Positions 3,472 to 48,800 of a stretch of 64,000 nt of DNA are shown here, piece after piece (the stretch's first letter is position 1; each line of letters starts with the position of its first letter). Below the pieces are notes generated by a model. It did not search any database and was not told where the DNA came from. It saw only the letters and a program-made list of their open reading frames with translations. Origin of the DNA: Malacoraja senta (Eukaryota); NCBI GenBank assembly GCA_038087875.1, contig CM075993.1, positions 10,728,001-10,792,000 of the forward strand, read 5' to 3'. A program made the position numbers and the translations under genes.

Positions 3472-6400
3472 GTGCCGCAGACTACTGTATCACTACTGCT
3501 TAATCTAGCGGGTCCAGAGGCAATGAATCGTGCTGACAACTTTGACCTTGCTCCTGCTATTGTGGATGGCAACGGGCAGGTCCAAGTCCCTGCCGAGACT
3601 GTAGATGACCCCGTGGTTCTCCTCAGAAAATTTAGAGAGCTGTGTGATCTGCCGTCAAACCACATAATTGAACGGACGAAGTTCTATGCTCGTTTGCAGC
3701 AGGCTGATGAACCTATTGAACTATTTATTAGCGGCTTGAAACACATGGCTGTGCACTGTCGCTTCGGTGAGTTGACTAATGAACTTGTTAGAGATAAGCT
3801 TGTCGGGGGCATGATCGATAGCAAACTGAGAGCTGAGCTCCTTCGCAACACCGAACGAACTATTGTCCAAGCGATTCATTCATGTCGAATTTCAGAGATT
3901 ACTGCTCCCCATGCTGATCCTGATTTTTTCAACCCACGACAGCAGCACGTCAATCTTACTGACCACCCCTCCCACAATGCCCCTAAGGTGCCTGCTGCTC
4001 TATGTCAGAATTATAATTATTTTCATGCAAAGGGTCGCCAATTCTGCATAGTTTACGGAAAGACCTGCAATTATTGTAAAAAGCAGAACTACTTTGCGAA
4101 ATGCTGCCGTTCTCGTGGGACTGCCAATCCTTCAAGGACAATCTTGGACCTGCTTCAACAAGAGTTCTCCGATACTGACTCCCCAGAGCCTGAAACATCC
4201 TCCCACGAGACACTGCTGATAACAGTTCTGCTATTCACTCCCTCCTCCCTTCGTCTAATGAGCTACTCGACCCTGAAGTGACCCTGAAGTTCATAAATAA
4301 CAGACCCACACTAGCCAAAGTGGATACAGGGGCAAAGGCCAACGTCATGTCGATAAGGGAGTTTAACTAAATCCGAAATGCCGAACAAATGCTTAAGGAC
4401 TCCTCAACGCTTCGGGCTTATGGGGGAGAGATCTTACATCCACTGTGCACAGTAGATGAGCAGACGCGCCCCCTGTAGTTTTACATTGTAAAAACAAAAC
4501 TCAGAGACTCTGCTTGGTATCAATGCATGCCACGACCTAGGCCTGGTGTATTTTGGACATGCGGTCCACAAACTATGCCTCACTGACGAGCCAGCACAGC
4601 AACTGCTCTCCCAGTACAAAGACCTGTTTAATGATGGACTTGGCAAGTTGCCTGTAAAGTATCGAATCACACTTGATCCTACAGTCACACCTGTAGTCCG
4701 AGCACCACATCACGTTCCACATACCATGTGCGACAGAATACGTAATGAACGCATGGTCTCAATGGGAGTCATTGCCGAAGTTACCGGCCCGTCTCACTGG
4801 GTTTCCACCATGGTCGTTGCAACTAAGAAAAACAAAGAGGAGATATGTATCTGCATCAATCCCAGAGATCTGAATACTGCAATCAAGCGCCCCCACTACC
4901 CAATGAGAACTACAGAAGATGTTGTTGCACAGATTGGAAATACAGCAGTGTTCTCAGTCCTGGATGCCAAAAGCTCCTTTTGGCAGATCCCATTAGACAC
5001 GGACTCATCCAACCTCACTACTTTTTGCACAACCTTCGGCCGTTTCAAATTTCTAAGGATGCCCTTCGGCATCAACTCCACCAGCGAAGTTTCCCAGTGC
5101 ACCATGGAACAACTATTTGCAGAGTACACGTGCGCTATCATTGTTGATGATATCTTCTTCTATGGTCGCGACCTGGCTGAATATGATGCTAATCTGAAGA
5201 GAGTGCTCGACTGCGCCAAAGACATTAATCTCAAATTGATTCCACTAAAGTGCAGGTTTCGAGTTCCCGAGGTCACTTACATCAGACATGTTTTCACCAG
5301 CAGTGGCCTCAAGCCTGATCTACTGAAAACCACAGCCATCAACGAACTGCCTGTTCCCACTGATGTCACGAGTTCGCAACGATTCCTCGGCATGGTCAAC
5401 TACCTGGGTAAATTTATTCCTAACCTCAGCGGGTTATCGGCCCCACTGCGCAAGCTGACACACAAAGATAGGGCATGGTCCTGGTACCCGCAGCACCAAA
5501 GGGCTTTTGACACGCTCAAGCTACAACTGGCCAGCGCGCCAACACTTTCATATTTCGATCTAGAATTACCAGTTACTATCTCCTGCGATGCGTCCCAGTA
5601 TGGGCTAGGCGCGGCACCCACTACCCAATGAGAACTACAGAAGACGTCGCTGCACAGATTGGAAATACAGCGGTGTTCTCAGTCCTGGATGCCAAAAGCT
5701 CCTTTTGGCAGATCCCATTAGACACGGACTCATCCAACCTCACTACTTTTGGCACATCCTTTGGCCGTTTCAAATTTCTAAGGATGCCCTTCGGCATCAA
5801 CTCCGCCAGCGAAGTGATCCCGCCACTACCGACGGCGGGATCAAGCCAGTCTCATATGCATCCCGTACCGTGACTGATACCGAACAGCGATATGCTCAGA
5901 TTGAAAAGGAACTGCTCGCGGTTGTTTTCGCATGTTCGAAATTCAAGGACTTCATTTTAGGTAAGACCATCACCATCGAGACTGAGCACCAACCCTTGGT
6001 CACTATTTTGAACAAGCCGATTCATGCGGCCCCAGCACGGCTGCAACGGACGATGATGCAGCTGTAGCGCTTTGACTTCCACATCGTCAACATGAAAGGT
6101 AAAGACATGCACATAACAGACATGCTATCCAGAGCCCCGCGCAGTACCAGTGAGTTTGTCCCTACTGATCGCTTACGCTGCCTTGCCGAACACACGGCTG
6201 CGGACGAGACTTTACAATTGCTGTCCACAGTCATACGGAACGGTTGTCCCCACAAACGGTCAAATACCCCGCTCGAGATACGCCCCTACTTCCTAGTTCG
6301 TGACGAGTTAGTGCTACAGGACGGAATCATAGTCAAGGGCCACAAGGCGGTGGTCCCAGCCGCACTACGGGTCGAATACTACAACGACATCCACAGGGGC

Positions 6401-7300
6401 AACGCCGGCACGAAGGCCACCCTCCAACGGGCTCAAAGTGTGTTTTACTGGCCCGGAATGACAAAATACATACGTGAAAGAACCAAAACAGTTTAGCACC
6501 ACACCAGCAGGAGCAGCCTCTTCTGCCCCATCCAGTTCCTCCTCTTCTGTGGTCCTCGCTGGCTGCCGACATCTTCGACTGGCATTGGAAACACTATCTA
6601 GTTCTTGTTGATTCTTACTCGGGATGGTTCGAACTAGACCGACTGCAAACCATTTCCTCTGAGTCAGTGATCGAGAAGCTGCAACGCACCTCTCCGTGCA
6701 TGGCTCGCTCCCCTGCTCGTATCCAGACTGACAATGGCAGGCAATTCACCAGCCAAGCGTTTAAGAACTTTGCTGAAAGATGGGACTTCCGACACATTAC
6801 CAGCAGCCCAGAGTTCCCGCAGTCCAATGGACTGGCCAAGCGCACTGTTCAGAGTGCGAAACAATTTATGGAACGTTCCTACCTTGCCAAATCCGACGTA
6901 TACCTGGACTTGCTCAATCTATGAAACATTGCATGGGACAACATCCGAGGCTCTCCTGCCCAGTGACTAGTGTCTCGCCAGACCCGTGTACCCCTTCCTG
7001 TCTCTCAGCAGCTACTGCAGCCACGCGTCCGCTCCCCGCCCGCGGTGCAGAAGCAGCTACAATTCAAGCGTTTCTACGACAAGTCCAGCAAGCCACTCAA
7101 ACCACTTGAGCATGGACAAGTGGTTCGCCTGCAAACCGACAAGGGCCATACACGACTGGGGCACATTTACGGACCCGTCCAAAGAACCACGTTCGTACCT
7201 GGTCGAAGTGGACGGAGTCATCTACAGACGCAACCGTCAACATATCCTTCCAGTGAAGGAACCGCGTCCTGCAACTACAGGTCCTGATGCCCCGCCTCTG
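3472..7300 (+). pseudogene. Gypsy gag-pol, disrupted
   Basis: ORF pieces 3472-4281 (gag, CNYCKKQNYFAKCC), ~4315 (KVDTGAKANVM), 4546-5631 (RT), 5705-6067 (RNase H, YAQIEKELLAVVFA) and 6092-7287 (integrase, TDNGRQF, PQSNGLA, PRSYLVE). Confidence 0.9.
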
Positions 7301-20989: not shown

Positions 20990-21085
20990 TCAAAGCAGCG
21001 CACAGCGGAAGAAGCTGCTTTTCTTTGACTGGTTCTTGGCGGTGATTTTAACTTGACCACCTCCTCCTGGAGGGCTGTTTTCATT
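20990..21085 (-). CDS. RAB8B: RAB8B-type last coding exon, NENSPPGGGGQVKITAKNQSKKSSFFRCALL*
   Basis: AG acceptor at 21087-21086 and TGA at 20992-20990. The SFFRCxLL CAAX prenylation tail is typical of Rab8. Confidence 0.93.
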   Translation of the reverse strand, partial: NENSPPGGGGQVKITAKNQSKKSSFFRCALL

Positions 21086-24000
21086 CTAGAAACAGAAATA
21101 TATTGTTACAAATGTCTAAAGACAGACTGGTAAACAGCATTCATAAGATTTTAAGACTTTAAAGATACAGCGCGGAAACATGCCCTTCTGCCCACCAAGT
21201 CCGCGCCAACCAGCGATCACCCCGTACACCAACACTACCCCACACACCAGCGACTATTTTATAACTTACCAAAGCCAACTGACCAACAAACCTGCACGTT
21301 TTTGGAGGGTGGGAAGAAACTTGAGCGCCCGGAGAAAACCCATGCGGTCACAGGGAGAATGAACAAACTCCATACAGACAGCACCTGTAGTCAGGATTGA
21401 ACCCTGTCTCTGGCGCTGTAAAGCAGCAACTCCACCGTTGCGCCACCGTGCCGCCCTTAATGTATCTTATCACACTGCTGTTGTATAACAAAAAATCCTG
21501 AACCTTCTCGAAACCATCCCCGTGACGTCTGATAACATTTCAGTCACTTAGATTAAGAAATGATTTCCAACCAGGTTTACTCTCTTGCCTATTCTTCTAT
21601 TGGTGCAGGGTGGAAGGAACAGGCAATTGAAGAAAATGAAACAAGGATGTTGCCAGGACTAGAGGTTTACGAGGATGTTGCCAGGACTAGAGGGTCTGAG
21701 CTCCACGCTGGGTCTCTATTCCTTGGAGTGCAGGATGATGAGGGGTTTTCTTATAGAGTTGTATAAAATCACTAAAGGAATAGATCGGGTAGATGCACAG
21801 AGTCTCTTGCCCAGAGTAGGGGAATCAAGGACCAGAGGACGTAGGTTTAAAGTGAAGGGGACAAGATTTAATAGGAATCTGAGGGTGGTGGGTGTATGGA
21901 ACAAGCTGCCAGAGAAGGTAGTTGAGGCAGGGACCACCCCAACTTGTAAGAAACACCTACAGATACAAGGATAGGACAGGTTTGGAGGGATATGGGCCAA
22001 ATGCAGGCAGATAGGACTAGTGTAGCTGGGACATGTTGGCAAGTTGGGCCGAAGGGCCTGTTTCCACGCTGTATCACTCTATGACTCTAAACAAATGATT
22101 TTGGGAATCACTAGTCCATTACAGAGATTTTCCTGAAAAGTTCTCAAATGGTTTACAAAGCTTCAGGATGAGGGAGCAGTGGCCTTTCCCCCCTCTTAGC
22201 AAATCCACAGGCAACCATTTAAACATCAGACAATCCTTTGGTCTGGAAAGACTGGGGACCCAGGAAGCATAACATCTACTTAGTACAAGCTGGATTACTG
22301 CAGCGTTTAAGTTTAATTAAAGGATTTCTGATGAAGCACAATTCCAACAAAGCTTTGCCCAGGGTACACAAAAATGCTGGAGAAACTCAGCGGGTGCAGC
22401 AGCATCTATGGAGCGAAGGAAATAGGTAACGTTTCGGGCCGAAACCCTTCTTCAGACTCTTCAGCTTTGCCCACATTGTTTTCTCTAGCATGCACAGGAT
22501 ATTTGTAAATGGCAGTCTTTAGCATTGCCAGCCTAATTTAAACCAGAGTTGAATAACTTTGAAGGGCAGCATGGTGGTGCAGCGGTAGAGTTGCTGCCTT
22601 ACAGCGCCAGAGACCCGGGTTAGATCCTGACTACAGGTGCTGTTTGCACAGAGTTTGTATGTTCTCCCTGTGAGTTTTCCCTGGGTGCTCCGGTTTCCTC
22701 CCACACTCCAAAGACGTACATGGTTGCAGGTGAATTGGCTTCGGTCAAAATTGTAAATTGTCCCTAGTGTGTGGGATAGTGTTAGTGTATGGGGTGCTCG
22801 CTGGACGACGCGGACTCAGTGGGCCGATGGGCCTATTTCCGCACTGCATCTGTATCTCCAAAGTCTAAGCTAGCAAACAGAAACAGAAACTGATCTTTCA
22901 AAACAGAACAGAACAGACCAGTGAGCCGAGTCACCATCCACTTGCCAGCTCTGTCACAGGCAGTCACTGTGTAGTGTTTGCAATTTGATGGAATGGGATA
23001 GCAACATATAGAGCAGGTCGAAGCGTCAGGTTTAACACATGGTTCCCACTTCCTACACTGGCTTGACCTTCATGGTATGAAGGAATTTTAAGTGGTAGAT
23101 GGAAGATTTACAAGGATGTTGCCAGGACTTGATGCCCTGAGCTATGGAGATAGGATGGGCAGGCTGGAGTACCAATGGATCAAGGGTGATCTTACAGAGG
23201 TGTATAAGATCATGAGAGGTATGGATAGGGTGGATGAACAATCTTGTACCCAGTCGAGAATCAGAGAGGGAAAACATTTCAAGCAGAGGTTAAAAATTTA
23301 ATAAGAACCCGAGGGGCAACGTTTTCCACACAGAGGGTGGTGGCTTTTGGAATGAGCAGCCAGAGGAGGTTGTTGAGGCAGGTACTACAACAACATTTAA
23401 AAGACATTAGGATACGAACAGGGACGGGAAAGATTTAGAGGGACGTGGACCAAATGCGGACAAGTAAGACTATTGCAGATGGGGCTTCTTGGTCGGCACC
23501 GGCAAGTTGGGCCGAAGAGCCTATTTCCATAAAGAGTCATAGTAATTCAGTGTGGAAACAGGCCCTTTGACCCAACTTGCCCACACCGGCCAACATGTCT
23601 CGGCTACACTAGTCCCACCTGCCCGCATTTGGTTCATATCCCTCCAAACCTGTCCTATCCATGTGCCTGTCTAACTGTTTCTTAAATGCTGGGATAGTAT
23701 GACTGTATGACTCGGACTCTTAAAGATATCAACATTGAGAACACTTCTCTATTAAGAGCTTGGCATGATACCAACTCATGAGTAAGATTTACCAGCCTGA
23801 CACCCTGCTGTGCTGGATCACTGATTAGTACGAAGGCACATTCCTCGCAGCACACTACATGCGAGTGAGACTATTGAAGATGGCTACATGGCATTAGCTG
23901 TGCGTGGCTATCCTGCCCATTGCACACAAAAAATAATGCAAGGGTTCATTCAAGCTTCACCCATACTAGACCTGAGCTTTTACAGTTTGTGACTTGCTTC

Positions 24001-24398
24001 TCTGGTAAAGACACAATAACAGTAAAAAGGTAGAAGCCTGTTCTATACAATGCAAAATGCCACGACTGTTTGCTTTGGTGCCACACAGCACTGGAGAGAC
24101 TCATGCCGCAGTGTTACACCAGAGAAAGATCCCAGGCATGAGTGGGTTAACGTACAATAAGCATTTGACGGCACCAGGCCTGTTTTCGCTGAGTTTGGAA
24201 GAATGAGGGGGGGTGGGACCTCATTGAAGCGTACAGAATGGTGAAAGGCTTGGAGAGAGTGGATGTGGAGAGGATGTTTCCACTAGTGGGGGAGTCCAGA
24301 ACTAGAGGTCATAGCCTCAGAATTAAAGGGCGTTCCTTTAGGAAGGAGAGGAGGAGGAATTATTTAGTCAGAGGACGGTGAATCTATGGAATTCATTG

Positions 24399-25762
24399 TA
24401 GACTGTGGGCCGAGGTGCTTTCTCATTTCATTTTCTGATCCAAATCACGTGTCTACCTATATTTATAACATATTGTGTAAAAATATTATAGAAATCAGAC
24501 CTGAAACTCGTCAAGAACAAAACCTGAACATATTTTTAAAAGATGAGAAAAACCTCAAATTTTCTGAGTAGTAATTGTCCAATCAAAGCACGTTTGACAT
24601 TGAGTCGGACGGCAATTGACCAATCACGCACTTTGTTTCATGCTAGCTAGGCAGCGAGCACACTGGGATCATGGCTGCCTCCTAATTACATCACAACAAT
24701 AGCAAGGTTTCGAAGGAAGAAAGGTAATGCAACCACTTGCTGATTATTTTGTTTTACAACTGATTTATCTTTGTAAAGTTATGATGTTGCGAACTGTGAA
24801 ATAAAAATGCAATATAAAAATGTAGAGCTAGGGTTAGGGTCAGGGTTAGGATTAGGCATTTTCCTCTCAGTGGAAGAGGGTTAGGGTTAGGGCAGGGGAC
24901 GGCAACCTACAGCCCAAGGGCCAGATCCTGCCCGTAACCCAAAAACATCCAGCCCGCAGGCGTATTTTTTTTTCTGAGGACTTCCGTGACGGAGCTGGCA
25001 CTATGGGGGTGCTGAAGGCGACCTGAGCAGCAGGGGTGGAAGAGAGGATTTCAGTCAGTCGGCCGGGCTGTCGGCCGGCCGGTGTTGCATCAGGCGGGCG
25101 GGCGTTCTGATGGAGCTGGCACTATTGGGGTGCTGAAGGCGGCCCGGGCAGCATGCAGGGCAGTGCTACTCCCCACCATGTTGACACTCGGTCTAATCGT
25201 GGCGTCGGGTGGACTGCTGCTGATGATCCAGAAGGGCATGCTGGCCGAGGTGGACGCGCTGAGCGGCCACATATACGGAGCGGTCCCAAAGTGGTTCCAG
25301 CTCCAGCCGTGGGCAGCTCTGGAAGGGGGCGGGTTAGGGTTAGGGGTAGGCATTTTCCTCTCAGTGGAAGATGCCTTAACCTTCCCCCAGCCTGGCACTG
25401 CCCCAGTCCCACTATGGCCATGACCCCCACTCTGCACACTGGCAGTCAGTGGGGTTCCGTAAACGGGGAACTGCCCTCACCCATTAATTAGGCGGGTTCA
25501 GGAGCCGGTGAAACCCGGGACCTCTGCAGCAATCCCGTATTCAATGTTCCCATACACAGCTATATATTATTGAGCACAAGAGGGCACTGTTACTTTTTCT
25601 AATTAGCTTCATTAATTAGTGTGCAACTTTTTGCACTGTTGAGTTATGAATTCCTTATCAGTGATGTTTTATCTAATTCTGTGCCAAATTTTAAGTCGAT
25701 ACCGGACATGGGTCATGAAAGTTAAAATCTAGAGCCCTTTTGGCACCTCGGCCCACGGCCTA
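24399..25762. mobile_element. Non-autonomous TIR DNA transposon (TAG termini, hAT-like, 1364 bp) carrying a gene fragment
   Basis: 20-bp TIRs tagactgtgggccgaggtgc / gcacctcggcccacggccta (2 mismatches). It interrupts a HER1 LINE fragment. No clean TSD. Confidence 0.75.
25124..25260 (+). pseudogene. CHST14: Captured CHST14 (D4ST1) N-terminal transmembrane fragment, VLLPTMLTLGLIVASGGLLLMIQKGMLAEV
   Basis: Close to human CHST14 as recalled ([30 protein letters not shown]). No sulfotransferase domain follows. Confidence 0.75.
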
Positions 25763-26139
25763 TCGTCACTGTGGAGGCCGTGAATGGATATTTTTACAGC
25801 AGAGATAGATAGATCCTTGATTAGTATGGCTGTCAGGGTTATGGGGCGAAGGCAGGAGAATGGGGTTAGGACGGAGAGTTAGATCAGCCTTGATTGGATA
25901 GTGGTGTAGACTTGATGGGCCGAATGGCCTTATTCTGCTCCTATCACTTATGACCTTGTGAGCAGAGTCAGGAAGAGTGGGTGAAGCACACAAGGAGGGT
26001 GCCGTTAAGCAGCAGTGAAATCGCAGCTTCTCCCAGTCCAGCACTCCCAGTGGGAAGAAACACCTCTCAGCATTTGTAAACAGGCCTGGGCACCACATTT
26101 CTACAAGAGCATCTTCCAGCCCCAGAAACATTTACGTAC

Positions 26140-26190
26140 CATTTTCCTGTTGAGCTTTGTCATGATGTCTCGTGCAAGTGTGATAAATGC
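26140..26190 (-). CDS. RAB8B: RAB8B-type coding exon (51 nt), AFITLARDIMTKLNRKM
   Basis: ttttgttgcAG acceptor and GTACGT donor. In frame with the flanking exons. KLNRKM is RAB8B-like rather than RAB8A-like (KMDKKL). Confidence 0.95.
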
Positions 26191-29100
26191 CTGCAACAAA
26201 AAGAAATAAGCGACTGTCACATGTAGCTGTGGTTACTGTGCACCGGTGGTTACAGAAATGGAGTCAATAGACAATAGGTGCAGCAGTAGGCCATTTGGCC
26301 CTTCAAGCCAGCACCGCCATTCAATGTGATCATGTCCGATCATCCCCAATCAGTACCCCATTCCTGCCTTCTCCCCATATCCCCTGACTCCGCTATTTTT
26401 AAGACCCCTATCTAGCTCTCTCTTGAAAGTATCCAGAGAATCTGCTTCCACCGCCCTCTGAGGCAGAGAATTCCACAGACTCACAACTCTCTGTGAGAAA
26501 AAGTGTTTCCTCGTCTCCGTTCTAAATGGCTTACTCCTTATTCTTAAACTGTGGCCCCTGGTTCTGGACTCCCCCAACATCGGGAACATGTTTCCTGCCT
26601 CTAGCGTGTCCAAGCCCTTAACAATCTTATATGTTTCAATGAGATTCCCTCTCATCCTTCTAAACTCCAGAGTGTACAGAGTCACGGTGTTAAAAGCTGC
26701 ACATTTAGCATCAACCCCCCTCCAAAAAAGACACAACTTCCTTTCTGATGAAAGATTGCAATGCCTCCTCTGCAAAAGTTGCTTGCTGCACACAAGCACA
26801 CAATCATGCACGGTTTAACAGGTGGTCAGCTTCATGTGTGTGATATTCCCCCCAACAGCAGCGCTTCCTGAAATGGCGTGACAAGAACACTCGAATCTAA
26901 CATGCCAGTCACTTAGAGAAATCACTTTTAGATGCAAACAAGCTGAAAACACTGAATGCTTTCACCAATTTTACTCAGAGATTCCAAACGTTTGGCATTT
27001 CTGAAGAAAAAAAGATGAGAATAATCTTGATTTTTAAAAATGGAAAAAAAAATCAAGTTACACAGCACTAGTATGCAGAAAAAGTGTTCATGTTCGTAAG
27101 TGATAGGAACAGAATTAGGCCATTCGGCCCATCGAGTCTACTCCCCCATTCAATCATGGCTGATCTATCTTTCCCTCTCAACTCCATTCTCCTGCCTTCT
27201 CCCCATAACCACGGACACCCGTACTAATCAAGAGCTAATATTTAAGGTTGATAGACATTGCTGCTGCCTGCCTGACCCACTGAGTTTCTCCAGCTCTTTG
27301 TGTCTATCTTCGGTTTAAACCAGCATCTTCCGTTTAAACCAGCAACCATTAAACCTGCACTTCCTTCCTACACATAATATTTGTCAACTTTTCCCCAGTT
27401 ATTCTGATGCAAGGCCATTGACCTGAAACACTAGGTGTTGTCTTTTCAAATGCTTTCTGATCGGCAAAGTACAGCCAACATTTTGTATTCATTTCATATT
27501 TTCAACTTCCACCATATTTTGCTTGTGTGTCATTTTGGTTTCAGAGGTCATTAGACACAGCTATATTTCAAACGAAAGGTTGCAAACGTTACTTGTCCAG
27601 AACCCAGAGCTGAAGTGTGATTCCATCATCTTTCGTTATGAAGGTAGACAAAAATGCTGGAGAAACTCAGCGGGTGAGGCAGCATCTATGGAGCGAAGGA
27701 AATAGGCAATGTTTCGGGCCGAATCCCTTCAAGGAAATAGGCAACGTTTCGGGCCGAATCCCTTGAAGGAAATAGGCAACGTTTCTGGCCGAAACCCTTC
27801 AAGGGTTTCGGCCCGAAATGTTGCCTATTTCCTTCGCTCCATAGATGCTGCCGCACCCGCTGAGTTTCTCCAGCATTTTTGTCTACCTTCGATTTTCCAG
27901 CATCTGCAGTTCCTTCCTAAAACAATCTTTCATTATGAATACTGCTTACTCTGTTCCAGATTAGATTTCCGACCTGACAGTTATAGAAACTAAACTTGCA
28001 GACATAGACACTTAAATTGTAGCAGAAAAATATTTTTTAATGTTCTTAAAGACGATTAGTGTATTTAGTGCTATATATAATTTATGTTGGATGGCACAGT
28101 GATGCAGCTGCCTCATAGCATCGGATAACCTAGTTCAACCCCAACCTAAGGTGCTGTCGCAAGTTCACAAGTATAGTAGAATTAGGCCATTCGGCCCATC
28201 GAGTCTACTCCGCAATTCAATCACGGCCGATTTCTGCCTCCTAATCCCATTTTCCTGCCTTCTCCCCATAACGACACCTGTTCTAATCAAGAATTTGTCT
28301 ATGGGAGGAGAATGGGAGTCTGAAGAAGGGTTTCGGCCCGAAACGTTACCTATTTCCTTCGCTCCATAGATGCTGCTGCACCCGCTGAGTTTCTCCAGCA
28401 TTTTTGTGTACCTAAGAATTTGTCTATCTCTGCCTTAAAAATATCCACTGACGGCCTCCACATCCCTCTGTGGCAATGAGTTCCACAGATGAACTATTCT
28501 CTGACTAAAGAGGTTCCTCCTCACCTCCTTTCTAAAAGAGCGCCTTTTAATTCTGAGGCTATGACCTCTGGTCCTAGACTCTCCCACTAGTGGAAACATC
28601 CTCTCCACATCCACTCTATCTATGCCTTTCATTATTCTGTAAGTTTCAATGAGGTCCCCCTCAAACTTCTAAACTCCAGCAAATAGAGGCCCAGTGCTGT
28701 CAAACGCTCATCATATGCTAACCCACTCATTCCTGGAATCATTCTTGTAAACCTCCTGTTGACCCTCTCCAGAGCCAGCACACCCTTCCTCAGATATGGG
28801 GCCCACATTTGTCTGCATGGAGTTTAACTGTTCTCCTTGTGACCATGTGGACATGTGACAGGTGTTCCCGGTTTCCTCCCACATCCCAAAGATGTGCAGG
28901 TTTAATCGGTTGACTGGCCTCTGTAAATTGTCCCTAATGTATAGGGTGTGGGATAATGTAGAATTAGTGTGAATGGGTGATCGATGGTCAATGTGGACTC
29001 AGTGGGCCGAAGGGCCTGTTTCCATGCTGTATCTTTCAATCAATCAATAATGTCACCATTTCACCCAAATAACCTGCATCAGTGTTACCGTATATAGAAG

Positions 29101-29306
29101 TGTTCATCTCATCGGCTATTTAATTTAATTGGAGTTGATGCATGCATGGTACAAATTGAAACAAGCTTCAAGACAGAAAAGACGATGAGAAAACCAAATG
29201 AGGTGGGAACAGGGTCGACAAAGCAAAGGATTTATGCAGAGGGAAAATAAACAAGAGAAGGCAGCTGACCAAGGAACTAAAATCATCTTTGTGAAATTAA
29301 TTTACA

Positions 29307-29612
29307 GTTTAGTTTAGTTTAGAGATACAGAGCGGAAACAGGCCCTTCGGCCCACTGAGTCTGCACCGACCAGCGATCCCTGCACATTAACACTATCCTA
29401 CACACAGTGACAATTTTCATTTATACCAAGCCAATTAACCTACAAACCTGTACGTCTTTGGAGTGTGGGAGGAAACCGAAGATCTCAGAGAAAACCCACG
29501 CAGGTCACGGGGAGAACGTACAAACTCTGTACAGACAAGCACCCGTAGTCAGGATTGAACCCGGGTCTCTGGTGCCGTAAGGCAGCAGCTCTACTGCTGC
29601 GCCACCGTGCCC
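29307..29612 (-). mobile_element. HE1-type SINE, near-consensus (others at ~12612, 17391, 21160, 22563, 32440, 37435, 42241, 48906, 56470, 59140)
   Basis: Full head, core and (AAACT)n tail. Confidence 0.88.
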
Positions 29613-30859
29613 CTTGGTGTTGGCAAGACTAGCCATTAATCCGATTGCTGGACTATTTCAGGTGCAGTTAACAGTCAAGCGTATTGCTGTGGGTCTTGAG
29701 TCACAAGGACAAAACCAGATTCAGGAAGGATATCTCTCCTCAAATACATGAATGAAGCAGCAACTGCTAGCTACAGTCAAAAGCAAACTGCTTGGGGAAC
29801 TCAGCTAGTCACAGATAGCTACATGCATGTTATCCCCAATAAAGATATCTGTGTGTCACGGACCAACCCTGTATCATAATCATGATGCCATCATTGTCCC
29901 ATGTCGTATATATAGAACTAGAGTTTAAAAAATGGAATCATAATATCACACATAGGCTAGATTGGGCCAGATTTCTCCCGAAAGAAATTGTTGAAATAAT
30001 CGACGTTTTCAGGGCAACACAAACTTCCGCAGTCATTGCGCACTTGTCCCAGACTCCACAAGTGAATATGAATTGCCCAGCTGCCTCAGGTAACCAGTTC
30101 AGTAAATTAACCAATGTCCCATTACATCCATCTGCTGTTTACTTATCTGTCAAAGGAGTTCACCCCCTACTCAATAAATTGGGCCACTTCAATTATACCT
30201 CATCTTGCACCTCTTCTTTCGTCATTCACTCTCTCCTACCTTGTCGCAGACACTATGATGTCCTTTCCTTGCCTCCCCTTTCTCAATCTGCAAACTTCAC
30301 AGTCTCTAATGTTTTTTGATCAAAGATCAGCATGAACTGCTCATTGTTTCGTCCCCAGCAGATGCTGCCAGCCCAGCCAAATATTTGTTCTAATTTCAGA
30401 ATTTTTGTAACAAATTCATTTTCAATATAAATTCGAACATAGAACAGTGCAACACGGGAACAGGCCCTTCAGCCCATGATGCCTGTGCCAAATAGGATGC
30501 TAAATTAAACATCGCCTTTAATCTTGCCCCCCGATATTAAAGCTAGGCCCTCTAATACGTGAAGATAGACACAAAAAACTGGAGTAACTCAGCAGGTCAG
30601 GCAGAATCTCTGGAGCAAAGGGATGGGTGACGTTTCGGGACACCCATTCCTTTTCTCCAGAGATGCTGCCTGTCCCGATGAGTTCTCCAGCTTTTTGTGT
30701 CTATCTTCGGTTCCTTCCTACACCCCTAGTACTTGACATTGTTATCCTGGGGAGAAGATGTGTACCCACTCAGTGGTTGGCAAGTTCAGGCTACACAATA
30801 AACACATACATTTATTTGTACATTAAATCAGTTTGCACACATTTCTCCTGGTTTCTTAC

Positions 30860-30925
30860 CTCTTCAACGTTTATGCTGGATTTTGCACTGGTTTCCAGGA
30901 ACTTAATCCCATAATCTATCGCTAA
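30860..30925 (-). CDS. RAB8B: RAB8B-type coding exon (66 nt), LAIDYGIKFLETSAKSSINVEE
   Basis: AG/GTAAG boundaries and the G5 motif ETSAK. A 91-nt intron separates it from the previous exon. Confidence 0.95.
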
Positions 30926-31016
30926 CTATTGGGAAAAGTAACACTAAGCATTAGTCAAAAGAAAAATACACCTGAACAATTAGTCTTAAAAAAAGAAACC
31001 ATTTTTGTTGCCTTAC

Positions 31017-31106
31017 CTTCTCCCCTCGCTCTTTTGACACTTGCCTTTTCTCATTCATGTCACACTTGTTTCCCAGGATCATCCTTTCCACATCCGATGA
31101 TGCATG
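31017..31106 (-). CDS. RAB8B: RAB8B-type GTPase internal coding exon (90 nt), HASSDVERMILGNKCDMNEKRQVSKERGEK
   Basis: AG acceptor at 31108-31107 and GTAAG donor from 31016. Translation contains the G4 motif NKCD in Rab8 context. Phase 0 at both ends. Confidence 0.95.
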
Positions 31107-38882: not shown

Positions 38883-39082
38883 NNNNNNNNNNNNNNNNNN
38901 NNNNNNNNNNNNNNNNNNNNNNNNNNNNNNNNNNNNNNNNNNNNNNNNNNNNNNNNNNNNNNNNNNNNNNNNNNNNNNNNNNNNNNNNNNNNNNNNNNNN
39001 NNNNNNNNNNNNNNNNNNNNNNNNNNNNNNNNNNNNNNNNNNNNNNNNNNNNNNNNNNNNNNNNNNNNNNNNNNNNNNNNNN
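38883..39082. other. Assembly gap (200 N)
   Basis: Run of N with a round length, probably a placeholder size. Confidence 0.99.
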
Positions 39083-40736: not shown

Positions 40737-42025
40737 GAGCCCTGTGTTTATCAACATGAGGACCAAAGTTGTGCCAATGAAAGTCAAAGAAGCCATTATG
40801 AGACTGAGATACAAGAATAAACCTGTTGGAGACATCAGCCAAACCTTAGGCTTACTAAAATCAACTGTTTGGAACATCATTAAGAAGAGAGCACTGGTGA
40901 GCTTACTAAACGCAAAGGGACTGGCAGGCCAAGGAAGACCTCCACAGCTGATGACAGAAGAATTCTCTCTATAATAAAGAAAAATCCCCAAACAGATCAG
41001 AAACACTCTTCAGGAGTGGATTTGTCAATGACCATTGTCCACAGAAGACTTCATGAACAGAAACACAGAGGCTACACTGCAAGATGCAAACCACTGGTTA
41101 GCTGCAAAAATAGGATGACCAGGTTAGTTTGCCAAGAAGTACTTAAAAGAGCAACAACAGTTCTGGAAAAAGGTCTTGTGGACAGATGAGACGAAGATTA
41201 ACCTATATCAGAGTGATGGCAAGAACAAAGTATGGAGGAGAGAAGGAACTGCCCAAGATCCAAAGCATACCACCTCATCCGTGAAACACAGTGGTGGAGG
41301 TGTTATGGCCTGGGCATGTATGGGTGCTGAAGGTACTGGCTCACTTATCTTCATTGATGATACAACTGCTGATGGTAATAGCATAATGAATTCTGAAGTG
41401 TATAGACACATCCTATCTGCTCAAGTTCAAACAAATGCCTCAAAACTCATTGGCCGGCGGTTAATGCTACAGCAAGACAATGATCCCAAACATACTGCTA
41501 AAGCAACAAAGGAGTTTTTCAAAGCTAAAAAATGGTAAATTCTTGAGTGGCCAAGTCAATCACCCGATCTGAACCCAATTGAGCATGCCTTTTATGTGCT
41601 GAAGAGAAAACTGAAGCAGACTGGCCCCCAAAACAAGCATAAGCTAAAGATGGCTGCAATACAGGCCTGGCAGAGCATCCCCAGAGAAGACACCCAGCAA
41701 CTGGTGATGTCCATGAATTGCAGACTTCAAGCAGTCATTGCATGCAAAGGATATGCAACAAAATACTAAACATGACTACTTTCATTTACATGACATTGCC
41801 GTGTCCCAAACATTATGGTGCCCAGAAATGGTGGGGGACTATATAAACACTGCTGTAATTTCTACATCGTGTAACCAAAATATATAAAAATTGCCTTTAT
41901 TAAAATCTGACAATGTGCACTTTAACCACATGTGATTTTTTTTCTATTACAAATCTCAAATTGTGAAGTACAGAGGCAAATAAATAAATGATAGGTCTTT
42001 GTCTCACATATTATGGAGGGCACTG
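40737..42025 (+). mobile_element. Tc1/mariner DD34E transposon remnant: transposase 40756-41769 (disrupted) plus right long TIR
   Basis: WTDETK, QQDNDPKH and SPDLNPIE with 34 residues between the second D and E. In-frame stop at 41536-41538 and frameshifts. Ends ...GAGGGCACTG followed by TA. Confidence 0.93.
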
Positions 42026-44473
42026 TATTTGCATGATGCACACTGATCAAACAGAATCTCTCCACGTTTTATTTTTGCACAATCGTGCAATTTCCCGGAA
42101 CCATGACACATTTCACTGAACCTCACTGAATGAATCTAAGGTGTTCTTTTAATAACCGGTAGTTTCCCACCAATGTTAGGGTCACTGGACTTCAGATCCT
42201 TGTCTTGCCACTTAAATAAAGGCACATATTACCCCCATCCAGTTTAATTTAGTTTAGTATAAAGATACAGCGTGGAAACAGGCCCTTCAGCCCACTGAGT
42301 TCACGCCGACCAGCGATCCCCACGCATTAACACTATCCTACACACACTCGTGACAACTTACATTTGTACCAAGCCAATTAACCTATAAACCTGTACTTCT
42401 TTGGAGTGGGGGAGGAAACCAGAGATCCCGGAGAAAACCTATGCAGGTCAGGGGGGAAAGCGTACAGTCTCAGTATACACAGCACCTGTAATCAGGATCG
42501 AACCCGGGTCTCCAGCGCTGTGAGGCAGCAACTCTACCAGTGCACCACCGGGCCGCCCCAGTCTTCCGGTACTTGACCAGGTGGCTGAAGATGATACAAG
42601 CATCTCTGCCAAAGCCCCTGCAATTTCTTCTCTAACGTCCCACAATGTCCTTGGGTACACTTGGTTGGGCCTCCAGGGATTTATGCGCTTTAAGATCTCC
42701 AGCACCTCCTCTTTAGTAATGTGCACATGCTTTAAGACATCACTATTCTTTGCCCTGAATTCCCATGATATTCTCCATGGTAAAGACAGATTAGAAATAT
42801 TCATTTAAGACCTCGCCCATCTTCTGTAGCTCCACGCACAGACCGCCAAATTGATCCATTACGGGGGCCCTATTTTCTCCATGTTTACACTTTTGATAAT
42901 TTATGTACCAACTCTTGGCATTCTCCTTTACCTTATCTACTAAAGCTATCACCCCCCTAATCTCTCGTGTACACCTACGTCACTTATACATTTCAAAGGT
43001 TTCATGATCCAAGCTGCTTAAACATTTGTGCCCTTTTTCCTGACTAGAGCATCAATATCCCTCAGCAACCAGGGTTCCCTAATCTTGGCAGTAATTCATT
43101 ATAATTATTCCAAACAAGCGGAACAAACGCTACCAGACCATCCAACAAGGCATATTGCAGCCTTCTAGATTCAATATTATTTTCAACTATTTCATATAAA
43201 CAGCACCGCTGCCATTTTTATTTCAGGTCCCAGTATGCACAATAATAATGTTAGGTGTAGGATTTGTCCTGCAGATGCTGGTTTAAACCAAAGATAGTAA
43301 AAAAAGCTGGAGCAACTCAGCGGGTCAGTAGAAAACCTCTTGGAAGCCGGAAACAAACCCGAGTACTGAAGGTGAAATGTACAGTAATGAAATGATGGAA
43401 AAAGTGCAAACAAAAGCTGTTCAAATTAGCAGCAGCATAAATTAGCAGCTTTGTAGGTTGAATGAGTTCAAATAATAAAACCAGAGACTTGAACGCATCA
43501 CGGTACATTATTCAATTAAAGGGCTACTGCTAAATTTTGCTTTACACTGCAACATTTCAGTGAGGTCACCCACATTTTAAATTGCTTATTAAGTTTGTGC
43601 TATTATTGTTAATATAATTCAACAGCATGAATTTCTTCTGCTCTATGCATCTTCATTTTCAAATTTGCTGGCAAACCAGTTCACAGCAATCCCACATTGC
43701 TGACTACTTAAGCCAACGTAAGTCACAGAGGTCGAACACAATGATTTACAGAACTGACTGCCGCTATACAAGAGACAAGATGTAGAAAGCTATTCTCGTA
43801 ACAAATGCTTACAGAGGCTGCTGGAACAAAGTCTCCAGTAAGCTTGTGAGTGTCAGCTGATCATGAATGAGAAGATACTCTGTGCTCTCAAGTCTTTCAC
43901 AACCCAAGATGATCAGCTGCAGCTTGTCACAGAGACTGCCCCATCATTTCCTCACAATGATAGGTCACGGCCCAGGTTTACGCTGCTTCAGTGACAGATT
44001 AATTCACCATCATGAACCAACATACTTCTGCGTGCAAACTCAAATCATTTTTGCTCGACATCAGTGGACTGGAACATGTTCAAGACTACAGCGTCCAGCC
44101 TGAATGAGTATTCCTCAGGCATCAGATTGTGGACGCAGCCCAGACCGTCGCACAAACCAACCTCCCTTCCACTGACTCTATTTATATCTCACGCTGCCTT
44201 GGCAAGGCCAGCAGCATAATCAAGGACGAGTCGCACCCTGGATACTCCCTCATCTCCCCTCTTCCATCAGGCAAAAGGTAAAGAAGTGTGAAAACACACA
44301 CCTCCAGATTCAGGGATAGTTTCTCCCCAGCTGTTATCAGGCAAATGAATCATCCTACCACAACCAGAGAGCAGTCAACTACGATCGACCTCATTAGTGA
44401 CCCTGGGACTATTCTTGTTCAGACTTTGCTGGCTTTACCTTGCACTAAACGTTATTCCCTTATCATGTATCTA

Positions 44474-45813
44474 TCTATCTATACATACATAACTAAAACT
44501 CTGATCTTGTGCTCTTCCAGTTTGTGGGGTTTTCTATTTGTTTAAAAACGGTATGTGATAGCGCTATGATTTTTTTGCCAGGTTACTCACCGTTCTCATG
44601 TGCTGCGAGTGCAACACGTTTAGTTCCGATCGGTGGTATATTGTAAAAGTTATCGAGGTTAAAAATCTTTTAAAAGATTTTTTCAGCCAGCGCCACGCAG
44701 ATTGGTCTCTTCTCCTGTCAGTCAATGCGGCGGCCAGGATGGCGACGCCCATTCCTGCCCCACCGTCAGCCGCCTCACTCACAAACTACTCTCTCCCCTC
44801 CTCAAAGTAACTTGTCTATTATCTCCCCCACCACCGGCGGCCGCGGGGGAGGGGTTCAGTGGAGGCCCTGGTTCCGTCCCTCTCTCCCTCATCACTCACC
44901 CCCTCTCCCCGCCCACTGCGGCAATGGCGGTCCCAGGTCTGTCTCCTCTGCCGTGGTAACTCACCCTCACGGCCTTCTCGGAGATCTTCTCCACCAGCTC
45001 ATCGAAACTCGTGGTGCCCACCGTGATGAACACCGACTCCACCACCCCCCCTCCCCCCCCGCGGCGGCAGCGAGCAGGCAGGGACGGGCCGAGCGGCATT
45101 TCGGACAGGACACACACACTCGTCAAGTCAATGGGTTCTAAACCACAGCTAACAATGAATGACCTGTGGAGGATGGAACTGCAGATGCTGCTTTTTATGG
45201 ATGGAGGGAGGGGAGTGACTGAGGGTAGGGGACAGGGGAGGGATGGGAGGTAAGGGAGGGATGGGGAGGGGAGGAGGAGAGGGAAAGAGTGGGGGGATTG
45301 AGGGAGAGGAAGGGGTAGGGAGGGAGAGGGAGAAAGTGGGGGAGGGGAGGAGGGGAAAACAGTGAGAGGAGGGGAGGAGGGAGCGGGGAATAGAGGAGAG
45401 GAAGGCAGTGGGGGAGGTCAGGAGGGATAGTGGGGGTTTAGGGGGAGGCGAGGAGTGGGGGGGTTAGATGGATAGGAGGGGGGGTATGAAGGGTAGCGGG
45501 GTTTTGGAGGGAGGGAGGGAGTGACTGAGGGTAGGGAAAGGAGAGGGAGCGAGAGGTGTGAGGGATTGGGAGAGGGGAGGAGGAGAGGGGAAAGAGGGAG
45601 GGTGAAGAGGAGGGGGAGGGAGTGCTAGGGATGAGAGGAAATGAGCCGTGCCGGCAGAGTTGGGGGCTATGCGTGAGTGGTGCAATGTAGCGTTGGGGGG
45701 GACGGGTTGCATGGGGAATGGGTGAGTGGTGGAACATTGCATTGGGGAACGGGTTGCGTTGGGGGACCAGGCCTCCCATGTAACAGGGACCCAACGGGTC
45801 CCACTTAGTCTAG
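44474..45813 (+). mobile_element. Non-autonomous Helitron (1340 bp) carrying a captured gene fragment
   Basis: Head TCTATCTAT...TAAAACTCT and 3' hairpin GGGACCC-aac-GGGTCCC (45786-45802) followed by CTAG. Inserted at A/T within a Rex-like LINE 3'UTR (tatctA/Tacactgtaaatgg) with no TSD. Termini are shared with 7696-10886. Confidence 0.88.
44965..45042 (-). pseudogene. ALG13: Captured ALG13 exon 1 fragment, (V)ESVFITVGTTSFDELVEKISEKAVR, followed by a GTGAGT donor
   Basis: Matches the ALG13 N-terminal signature VFVTVGTTSFD. The start-codon position reads GTG. A splice donor follows codon 26. No further ALG13 exons were seen. Confidence 0.85.
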
Positions 45814-48800
45814 TACACTGTAAATGGCCCGATTGTAATCATGTATTGTCTTTCCATTGACTAGTTAGCACGCAACAAAAGCTTTACTCGGTACCTCGGT
45901 ACACGTGACAAAAAACTAAACTGAAACTGAACTGAGCAATACGTTGACAACTGTGAGCTGATCAGAACCATTAACCAGAACCCTTGGGAGATTCACTCTC
46001 TGTTAAAATCTGATCAAAATCTTTCAAGGACACCCTCCATACTGTACAAAGTCAAGTTTAATTTCTGCAACGCTATCAGGGCTGCTAAGAGAGAAGTTCA
46101 AAACAAGAAAGAGGCTCAATTCAATCAGTTCAGTTTAGTTTAATGTCACGTGTACCGAGGTACAGTGAAAAGCTTTTTCTTGCATGCTAACCCGTCAGCA
46201 GAAAGACAATACATGATTACAAGCAATCCAGTTAAAGTGTATGATAAGGGAATAACATTTAGTGCAAGACAAAGCCAGTCAAGGATAGTCCGAGTGACAC
46301 CAAAGAGGTAGATAGTAGTTCAGCACTGCTCTCTGGTTGTGGTAGGAAGATTCAGTTGCTTGATAACAGCTGGGAAGAAACTGTCCCTGAATCTGGTAGT
46401 TTGCATTTTCACACCAATCAAGCAGATGGCAGGAGATAATGGCAAGGCCTGCAAAACATCATGGGCTACAAGCCAAAATGTATGCGGGGGAGGGGACGAA
46501 GGGGATCTAGCAATGGCACATTTCTACCCAAGGTAGTTGTGGCAGGGGCTGAATACTATTACAGGCTACGTCAAAATGGGGTTGGACCCCCCCCCCCCTG
46601 TGTTTTCACAGGATAGCTCTTCGAAAGGATGCGGGCGAATGTGCTCGATTAACTACAGAGTTCAGAAGTTTTTCTTCAGAGATAAGAGAATGGGAAGATT
46701 TGGTACATTTTAAAATCATGAATGACTTTGCAAAACTAATGGAGAACGCACAGAGAAAAGTTGTTAATTAAGAAAAGGACATACGAGCGTAAAAAGAACA
46801 AGTTAAAATGATTAAAAAATGAACAACCCGAAAGGGTGCAGAAGCAATTTCATCAGAGACGACAATGACCAGGAAATGTATTTAAATATGCTGATATCTC
46901 ATCTCTCTTTTAATTCTTCTATTTCACCCGTGGGATGGTAGGGAACTCAGCCCTAAAGTGTAGTGGAACAAAAAGGGTCAGCACATTTAAGTATTACTAA
47001 GACAAACACTTGAACAAGAAATGTGTTAAAGAAGGAACTGCAGATGCTGGAAAATCGAAGGTACACAAAAATGCTGGAGAAACTCAGCGGGTGCAGCAGC
47101 ATCTATGGAGCGAAGGAAATAGGCAACGTTTCGGGCCGAAACCCTTCTTCAGACAAGAACTTGAACAAGAAACACTTGAACATCAAACCACAAACCAAAG
47201 TTGAGAAATGGGTTTAGAATCTATTTAGGTCCACTTTGGGCTTGGGGTGAACAACCTCTTTCTGCACTCTAGGATTTATGATGCTGCCTCAGATGGAATT
47301 TTCCATCACCTACATTCATTCTTTGCTCGTTCCATACTCGTTCCATACAGCTCGTTCCATACACCCACCACCCCTTATGTGAAAAAGTTACCCCTCAGAT
47401 TCCAATAAAATCTTTCCCTCTTCACCTTAAACCTTATGCCCTCTTGCTCTCATTTCCCCTACTCTGGGCAAGAGATTCTGTGCAAGAGACCCGAGCTATT
47501 GCTCTCATGATTTTGTACACTGCTGCGGTTCACGGCGGTATTTTGGGTTATGAACAGTTCATAGGAACAGAACACTACCGTAACCTGGAGAGGTCATAAG
47601 TGATAGCAGCAGAATTAGGCCATTTGGCCCATGATCAAGTCTACTCCACCATTCAATGATGGACCTGTAATGGATTTTCATATCACAAGCATTACAAGAT
47701 ATTTAATTGTATGGATTAAGTAAAGTTTAAGAGAAGTATTGTGGAAGATAGCAAACAATCAAATGCTGACCATTCTTTGTTGTGGTCTATTCAAGGTCGA
47801 AGGCTCATTTTCATTTCTATCTACCATGGCGATATTTCTAATCAACTAAATGGATTTAAACCTGAGGGGCATTCAAGTCTGAAGTAGGTACCAACTGTAT
47901 TTGTTGTGTACATTATGAAGTAGATGACTGGAAAAAAACCATCCTTCTCCTTGCCTCTGGCATGTCTAAACTTCCACTTTTATCTGTGATAATTCCTGTG
48001 ATAATTAAACAGATCAGGAATATTTTTTGGGAAGGAGGAAGAACCAAGTGTGAACTACAAACCCCATCTGAAGACTGAGGTGAGAAAAAGCTTTTTCACC
48101 CAGAGAGTTGTGAATTTGTGGAATTCCCTGCCACAGAGGGCAGTGGAGGCCAAGTCACTGGATGGATTTAAGAGAGAGTTAGATAGAGCTCTAGGGGCTA
48201 GTGGAGTCAAGGGATATGGGGAGAAGGCAGGCACGGGTTATTGATAGGGGACGATCAGCCATGATCACAATGAATGGCGGTGCTGGCTCGAAGGGCCAAA
48301 TGGCCTCCTCCTGCACCTATTTTCTATGTTTCTATGAAAATGGAAAGAAAGACAGAAATAAAAGAATGCAAAGCATTTTGAAATCTTCAACTCTGGCACG
48401 ATACAAACATTTCCATATTTCTAGGACAATCTATTTCATGTACCATCGTGAATGTATGCAAAGGCAGGAGGTGCAGTGAGCAGAATGTGAAAACAAGGGC
48501 ACGAGAGTTAAAATCAAGAGTTTGCTTGGCTGCAAGACTATGTAGGCCACCAAGCAATTGATGATCATTAACAGACACTCGGTACGGTTCAGACACGCGC
48601 AGGGAGTTTTGGAAAACAAGTTTACAAATGAGATGGGTCAGGCAGAAGGGCAGGTGATATACTTGTGCCTTGGAGGCAATAACAGACCAATGAATCAAAC
48701 GATGGTAGACAAAAGTGCTGGAAAAACTCAGCAGGTGCAGCATCATCTATGGAGGGAAGGAAACAGGCAACGTTTCGGCCCGAAACGTTGCCCGTTTCCT

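Follow-up and report, generated by a model that had tools for sequence, protein, structure and literature searches.

Results

A Helitron inserted into a common repeat

The window, that is, the whole stretch of 64,000 nucleotides of Malacoraja senta DNA that was analysed, contains a Helitron lodged in a common repeat and carrying the 5′ end of ALG13 in antisense; the last coding exons of RAB8B lie in the same window (Table 1). Two further remnants of mobile elements were observed, both on the plus strand: a broken LTR-retrotransposon pol with Pfam matches to RT, RNase H and integrase in several frames (4492–6921), and a decayed Tc1/mariner-type transposase with HTH_Tnp_Tc3_2 and DDE_3 matches below the cut-off (40884–41766).

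Table 1 Positions of the Helitron, its captured cargo, the interrupted repeat and the probable host gene (window coordinates)
Feature	Position	Strand	Basis or remark
Non-autonomous canonical Helitron, ALG13-carrying subfamily, 1340 bp	44474..45813	+	Termini, empty sites, copy alignment
5′ arm: TC start, TCTA microsatellite, about 290 bp common with sister subfamilies of other cargo	44474..44765	+	
First part of ALG13 intron 1, captured, with its splice donor GTGAGT (44964–44959)	44766..44964	-	Alignment to G000:C7:5532646 onward
ALG13 coding exon 1 as captured: 78 nt after a 3-nt deletion, GTG in place of the ATG, donor in phase 0	44965..45042	-	Alignment to the gene
Captured ALG13 upstream DNA (5′UTR/putative promoter), 153 of 335 nt left; in-frame ATG at 45099	45043..45195	-	
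Purine-rich 3′ arm and subterminal stretch, common with ALG13-less sisters	45196..45785	+	
Terminal hairpin (45786–45802) and CTAG	45786..45813	+	26 of 31 aligned columns as in the end of a RepHel-coding element
Host repeat interrupted by the Helitron, left part (extends further left)	44304..44473		
Host repeat interrupted by the Helitron, right part	45814..45937		
RAB8B last four coding exons: 31106–31017, 30925–30860, 26190–26140, 21085–20990	20990..31106	-	Probable host gene

Canonical Helitrons begin with TC and end in CTRR, and a short hairpin precedes their 3′ end by about 11 nt. The element begins with TC at 44474 and ends with CTAG at 45810–45813, followed by T, and the hairpin upstream of this end has a 7-bp stem (z −2.48; 2 of 200 shuffled sequences folded equally well). 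Uninterrupted paralogues of the host repeat were present among the loci retrieved from the genome, and contigs of such paralogues joined 44473 directly to 45814, skipping everything from TC to AG, in all four sequencing runs examined (13–18 contigs each), which places the insertion at an A|T site without target duplication. The commonest empty form reads ...TCT-G-TACAC, with G where a start at 44474 needs A; given this G and the TCTA microsatellite at the 5′ end, 44474 is the most parsimonious start and 44470 a less parsimonious alternative. The termini, the fold and the paralogous empty sites confirm the Helitron hallmarks of the original prediction (5′ TC, 3′ hairpin and CTAG, A/T insertion, no target site duplication), and in all features that can be read from its sequence the window element agrees with a canonical, non-autonomous Helitron.

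The ALG13 gene and the captured fragment

A PF04101 search of the genome revealed exons 2 and 3 of ALG13 on another contig (G000:C7), near 5535748 and 5539991. A 20-mer of the window exon had 87 exact matches in the genome, and its reversed control none; one of the matches was located 3.2 kb upstream of ALG13 exon 2. The true exon 1 spans C7:5532565–5532645, with the ATG at 5532565, 81 coding bases and the donor at 5532646; it joins exon 2 in phase 0, and phases match across exons 1–3. The peptide that it encodes matches the N-terminus of Leucoraja ALG13 (P0030) exactly; over exon 2 the identity to this protein is 100%, against 80–89% for sharks and rays, which marks the genome as a skate's. 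The real locus, which had been proposed as a check, is therefore a single intact gene elsewhere, and the window piece is not that gene. No Helitron arm or remnant adjoined exon 1 of the gene on C7, so the direction of transfer was from the gene into the element. Weak PF04101 matches in clustered long single frames were also observed at G000:C13:3.65–3.99 Mb, C2:173.9–174.0 Mb and C5:78.5 Mb; these are probably UDP-glycosyltransferase gene arrays.

The captured fragment, antisense in the element, amounts to about 630 bp: 335 nt of upstream DNA, coding exon 1 with 81 nt, and some 210 nt of intron 1. In many copies the alignment to the gene extends from −356 to +272 around the exon 20-mer. On the upstream side the fragment ends within the tail of a short interspersed repeat, one that is also present upstream of the ALG13 gene. 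Because the cargo includes intronic and upstream genomic DNA, it was captured at the DNA level and is not a retrocopy; because both junctions are identical in all 10 copies inspected at the junctions, a single capture is indicated.

In the window copy, the minus strand from 45042 to 44965 reads 26 codons beginning V-E-S-V-F and running directly into GTGAGT, so that the predicted antisense frame and donor were borne out by translation. The 26-aa peptide alone was below the Pfam cut-off (PF04101, E 0.11) and had no PDB match, but the DNA of this piece aligned to the true exon 1 with an E value of 2e-47, which establishes the proposed ALG13 identity. GTG stands in place of the ATG start codon, 3 nt of the exon are deleted, and the donor is intact. 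Capture of promoter, exon 1 and the start of intron 1 had been proposed: DNA-level capture stands, whereas the upstream DNA is a putative promoter from its position and GC content only, and in the window copy more than half of it is gone (182 of the 335 nt).

Copies and copy number

For the family analysis, 60 loci were gathered (30 by exon match, 29 by 5′-arm match and 1 from a sample), and 13 were dropped before the tallies (8 without the full exon, 5 duplicates), leaving 47 copies, which were picked by best match and are not a random sample. Within the retrieved stretches, the 5′ arm was present in 37 copies, the 3′ arm in 28 and both in 19, in line with the expectation that the ALG13 piece would recur within Helitron ends. 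A CTRR end was found in 20 of the 28 copies with a 3′ arm, and the next base was T in all 20. The TC start could be resolved in 24 of the 37 copies with a 5′ arm, the other 13 being blurred by the microsatellite or by a tandem junction, and was preceded by A in 18 of these 24. Flank overlap in nine copies with both ends was 0 nt in six and 2 nt in three; the 2-nt overlap is TA, which is obtainable from an A|T site by itself.

Outside the ALG13 gene there were 86 exact matches to the exon 20-mer, some of which are assembly duplicates, and there were 434 first-look candidates in the genome; the corresponding numbers for the 5′ arm were 881 exact 21-mer matches and 3400 first-look candidates. Scaling by motif retention (5/26 for the exon motif; 9/28 for a 5′ motif shifted by one base from the one counted), and using the 881 exact 5′ motifs with two to three ALG13 carriers per 40 sampled elements, we estimate roughly 140–450 ALG13-carrying copies.

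Head-to-tail junctions, in which CTAG is directly followed by a 5′ arm without its first bases, were found at L004 (G000:C5819:1-3224), L089, L101, L126, L145, L149 and L150, as expected from tandem or circle-derived copies. Such junctions, as well as mixed cargoes, are frequent in this Helitron family.

Age and decay of the copies

The 47 copies differed from the column majority by 4.4–15.8% (mean 9.2%; window copy 10.8%), and the closest pair, after duplicates were dropped, was 9.6% apart. Since no copy among the 47 lay within 4.4% of the column majority, the copies are old and ongoing dispersal is unsupported; the original prediction that the fragments are being dispersed should accordingly read that they were dispersed.

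Non-CpG changes in the exon comprised 17 synonymous and 73 non-synonymous ones, giving a dN/dS of 1.13–1.51 with no departure from neutrality (p 0.15–0.8), although with 90 changes the power is low and selection on a few copies could go unseen. CpG sites were changed at 13.3% versus 3.6% elsewhere (p 3e-19), an excess as expected of methylated DNA. The ATG was retained in 33 of the 47 copies, the GT donor in 43 and an intact frame from ATG to donor in 26. The copies thus decay like neutral DNA.

Contigs across the ALG13 piece also exist in a second species, which differs by about 3% in unique flank; the capture is thus likely older than the split of the two. Among the contigs of this species that were examined, none spans the window insertion site.

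Sister elements with other cargoes

Forty elements were surveyed for cargo, chosen by their order in the genome among the listed 5′-motif matches on contig C1. ALG13 carriers were a minority: two by alignment, and one more truncated at the junction. In two others, an exon on the sense strand ran up to a GT donor; the frame of a copy matched skate SAC3D1 at 80–82% (E 6e-35). Sister Helitrons carrying sense-oriented SAC3D1 exon 1 together with its donor include L123, L131 and L171–L203 (e.g. G000:C1:116005693-116005938), and Helitron arms were found at most of 29 further loci of this piece that were examined. In the genome, the SAC3D1 piece gave 783 first-look candidates at the DNA level; at the protein level there were 106 matches, all within residues up to 186; these 106, as well as all three PF03399 matches, are exon-1 pieces. 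The SAC3D1 source gene was not located, as nothing beyond residue 186 of 341 appeared in the 106 matches (118 of 414 candidates scored).

A third cargo was the commonest in the sample (23 of the 40 elements, two of them near-duplicates; loci L118–L155). It is GC-rich with short tandem repeats, and in most elements has an exon-like end at a donor-like GTGAGT. Pfam analysis of 54 of its 151 cargo frames gave no match; a profile search with one reading frame gave three matches, all to low-complexity repeats of microbial or metagenomic proteins, which were rejected as spurious. Other GC-rich inserts between the same arms were seen at L124, L126, L128, L144 and L148 and are possibly further captured gene starts.

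Autonomous elements in the same genome

The genome contained 112 matches to PF14214 (Helitron_like_N), and a 1727-aa ORF combined Helitron_like_N and PIF1 domains (PF14214, PF05970). The 3′ end of elements coding for RepHel has the hairpin and CTAG|T of the window element, with 26 of 31 columns identical. An autonomous partner is assigned to the same family at ≥80% over the last 30 bases in the published bat analysis (PMC4224331); the RepHel-coding element reaches this level at its 3′ end (26/31 columns) and does not agree over the first 30 bases, by which subfamilies are defined. The common 3′ end suggests that the ALG13 family could have been mobilised in trans by a local RepHel. Counted against this explanation, what the autonomous elements share with the ALG13 family is limited to the TCTA...TAAAACTC start and the final 30 bp, so that they are no more than candidate mobilising partners.

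Uninterrupted RepHel frames of 1669–1766 codons were observed at G000:C4719:110805-115985, C3619:48580-53878 and C1:40975981-40980987. These elements sit in tandem arrays of Helitron ends and many Rep domains are near-identical; a younger autonomous Helitron family may therefore be present in the genome.

Helentrons and Helitron2 elements are likewise rolling-circle transposons of vertebrates that insert without target duplication, and are distinguished by subterminal inverted repeats, a TT target and an endonuclease domain. Membership of the window element in this group was rejected on the basis of its AT target, its TC and CTAG ends, and the lack of an endonuclease match in the one RepHel ORF scanned (1727 aa).

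Route of capture and alternative readings

We consider it very probable that the window element is a non-autonomous Helitron carrying the 5′ end of ALG13, which was likely captured once at the DNA level, likely copied by a related RepHel to an estimated few hundred sites, and is now in neutral decay. Capture would most likely have started from a Helitron 5′ arm sitting antisense about 200 bp into ALG13 intron 1, from which copying would have bypassed the end and run on through exon 1 and the upstream DNA. The product would later have gained the hairpin-CTAG arm from a neighbouring family member, and RepHel of related autonomous Helitrons in the same genome would have copied it in trans to a few hundred sites, where the dispersed copies now decay neutrally. 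Read-through capture has been demonstrated for the bat Helitron Helraiser (PMC4778049).

One-step read-through does not account for the position of the cargo between two arms that are both common with ALG13-less sisters. This central position makes capture by internal gap repair or template switching, in which ALG13 DNA would have been copied into an internal break of an existing non-autonomous element rather than taken up by end bypass, a real alternative route, and the lack of any Helitron trace at the ALG13 gene fits it as well. However, none of the loci, including the ALG13-less L097 and L099, was identified as a clean empty parent whose arms meet directly at the ALG13 junctions, and tandem CTAG|TACATAAC junctions (L004, L089, L101, L126, L145, L149) show that arms are readily swapped by read-through. 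We regard gap repair as possible but the less favoured route; it would alter the manner of capture only.

A second question is whether the window copy, or a subset of copies, acts as a mobile promoter or exon trap, which at this locus would give rise to a chimeric, truncated Rab8b in frame. The captured exon is on the same strand as RAB8B, and the ATG at 45099 opens 45 codons to the phase-0 donor, phase-compatible with the phase-0 RAB8B exon at 31106; the donor GT is widely kept among the copies, as noted above, and HelibatN3 of bats acts in this way experimentally and in vivo (PMC4778049). In the window copy, however, the native ATG is absent and the loss of upstream DNA makes splicing to RAB8B unlikely, and the CpG decay points to methylation.

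The host-gene context adds a further reservation. The host-gene scan that pointed to RAB8B covered 221 of 253 candidate frames; exon 1 of the gene lies at G000:C17:10814867-10814992, 23 kb past the window end. Exons 2–4, numbered as in the human gene, were not found, whether in the window and a further 150 kb or in 146 genome-wide matches obtained with a query of 68 aa, and assembly gaps lie on either side of the contig that holds the element, at window 38883–39082 and 15 kb past the window end. For both reasons the intron location, and even the placement inside RAB8B, depend on scaffolding across the two gaps; the window copy probably lies within a RAB8B intron. We consider an exon trap improbable, at this locus or in a subset of the copies, and regard the window copy as most likely inert, a mere passenger.

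Readings of the piece as the genuine first exon of ALG13, as a retrocopy or as a chance peptide match, for which the sub-threshold Pfam score of the 26-aa peptide might speak, are refuted practically beyond doubt by the intact gene on C7, by the 86 other exact 20-mer places, and by a cargo that includes intron sequence and an upstream repeat tail and lacks exon 2.

Discussion

The skate element shows a known anatomy of gene capture, that of the bat HelibatN3 with NUBPL, in a new lineage. HelibatN3 of Myotis bats contains NUBPL's promoter and 5′UTR, its exon 1 and part of its intron 1 (PMC4224331; PMC4778049); like the ALG13 element, it is a non-autonomous TC...CTRR Helitron with the upstream DNA, first exon and splice donor of a housekeeping gene at high copy number. 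The skate elements differ in their cargo (ALG13 and SAC3D1), in a longer coding part (27 codons versus 6) and in a lower copy number. Promoter-capturing Helitrons of bats comprise 15 genes and 4,690 copies in the published account (PMC4224331; PMC4778049), and capture of several genes by one family, as in the skate, is likewise described there (PMC4224331). For the bat elements, promoter activity and chimeric transcripts have been shown, whereas the skate elements are known here from sequence.

Heli1Xen1 of Xenopus laevis has also captured coding fragments, 17 of 19 of them from gene 5′ ends (PMC12001565). In contrast to the skate family, with an estimated few hundred copies of one cargo that are all old in our sample, it has 64 insertions in all and is probably still active. 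A capture bias to gene 5′ ends has thus been reported both in bats (PMC4224331) and in Xenopus (PMC12001565).

In the literature searched, no paper joined a Helitron with ALG13 or SAC3D1, and none was found that reports Helitron gene capture in cartilaginous fishes, though Repbase, Dfam, subscription journals or supplements of skate genome papers may already list the family. We tentatively suggest, as an idea with less than even support, that skates could join vesper bats and Xenopus as a third vertebrate lineage with repeated capture of GC-rich housekeeping-gene starts by a single Helitron family. The genes would be ALG13, SAC3D1 and one or more others; the promoter-exon-donor cassettes spread through the genome in this way would number hundreds to thousands, and some might now serve as alternative first exons, for example in RAB8B.

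For skate genomes, the hundreds of exon-1 copies of ALG13 and SAC3D1 will confuse annotation, homology searches and read mapping. More broadly, the finding adds cartilaginous fishes to the groups in which Helitrons have captured gene 5′ ends, and provides an independent lineage in which to ask why captures favour gene starts and why these amplify well.
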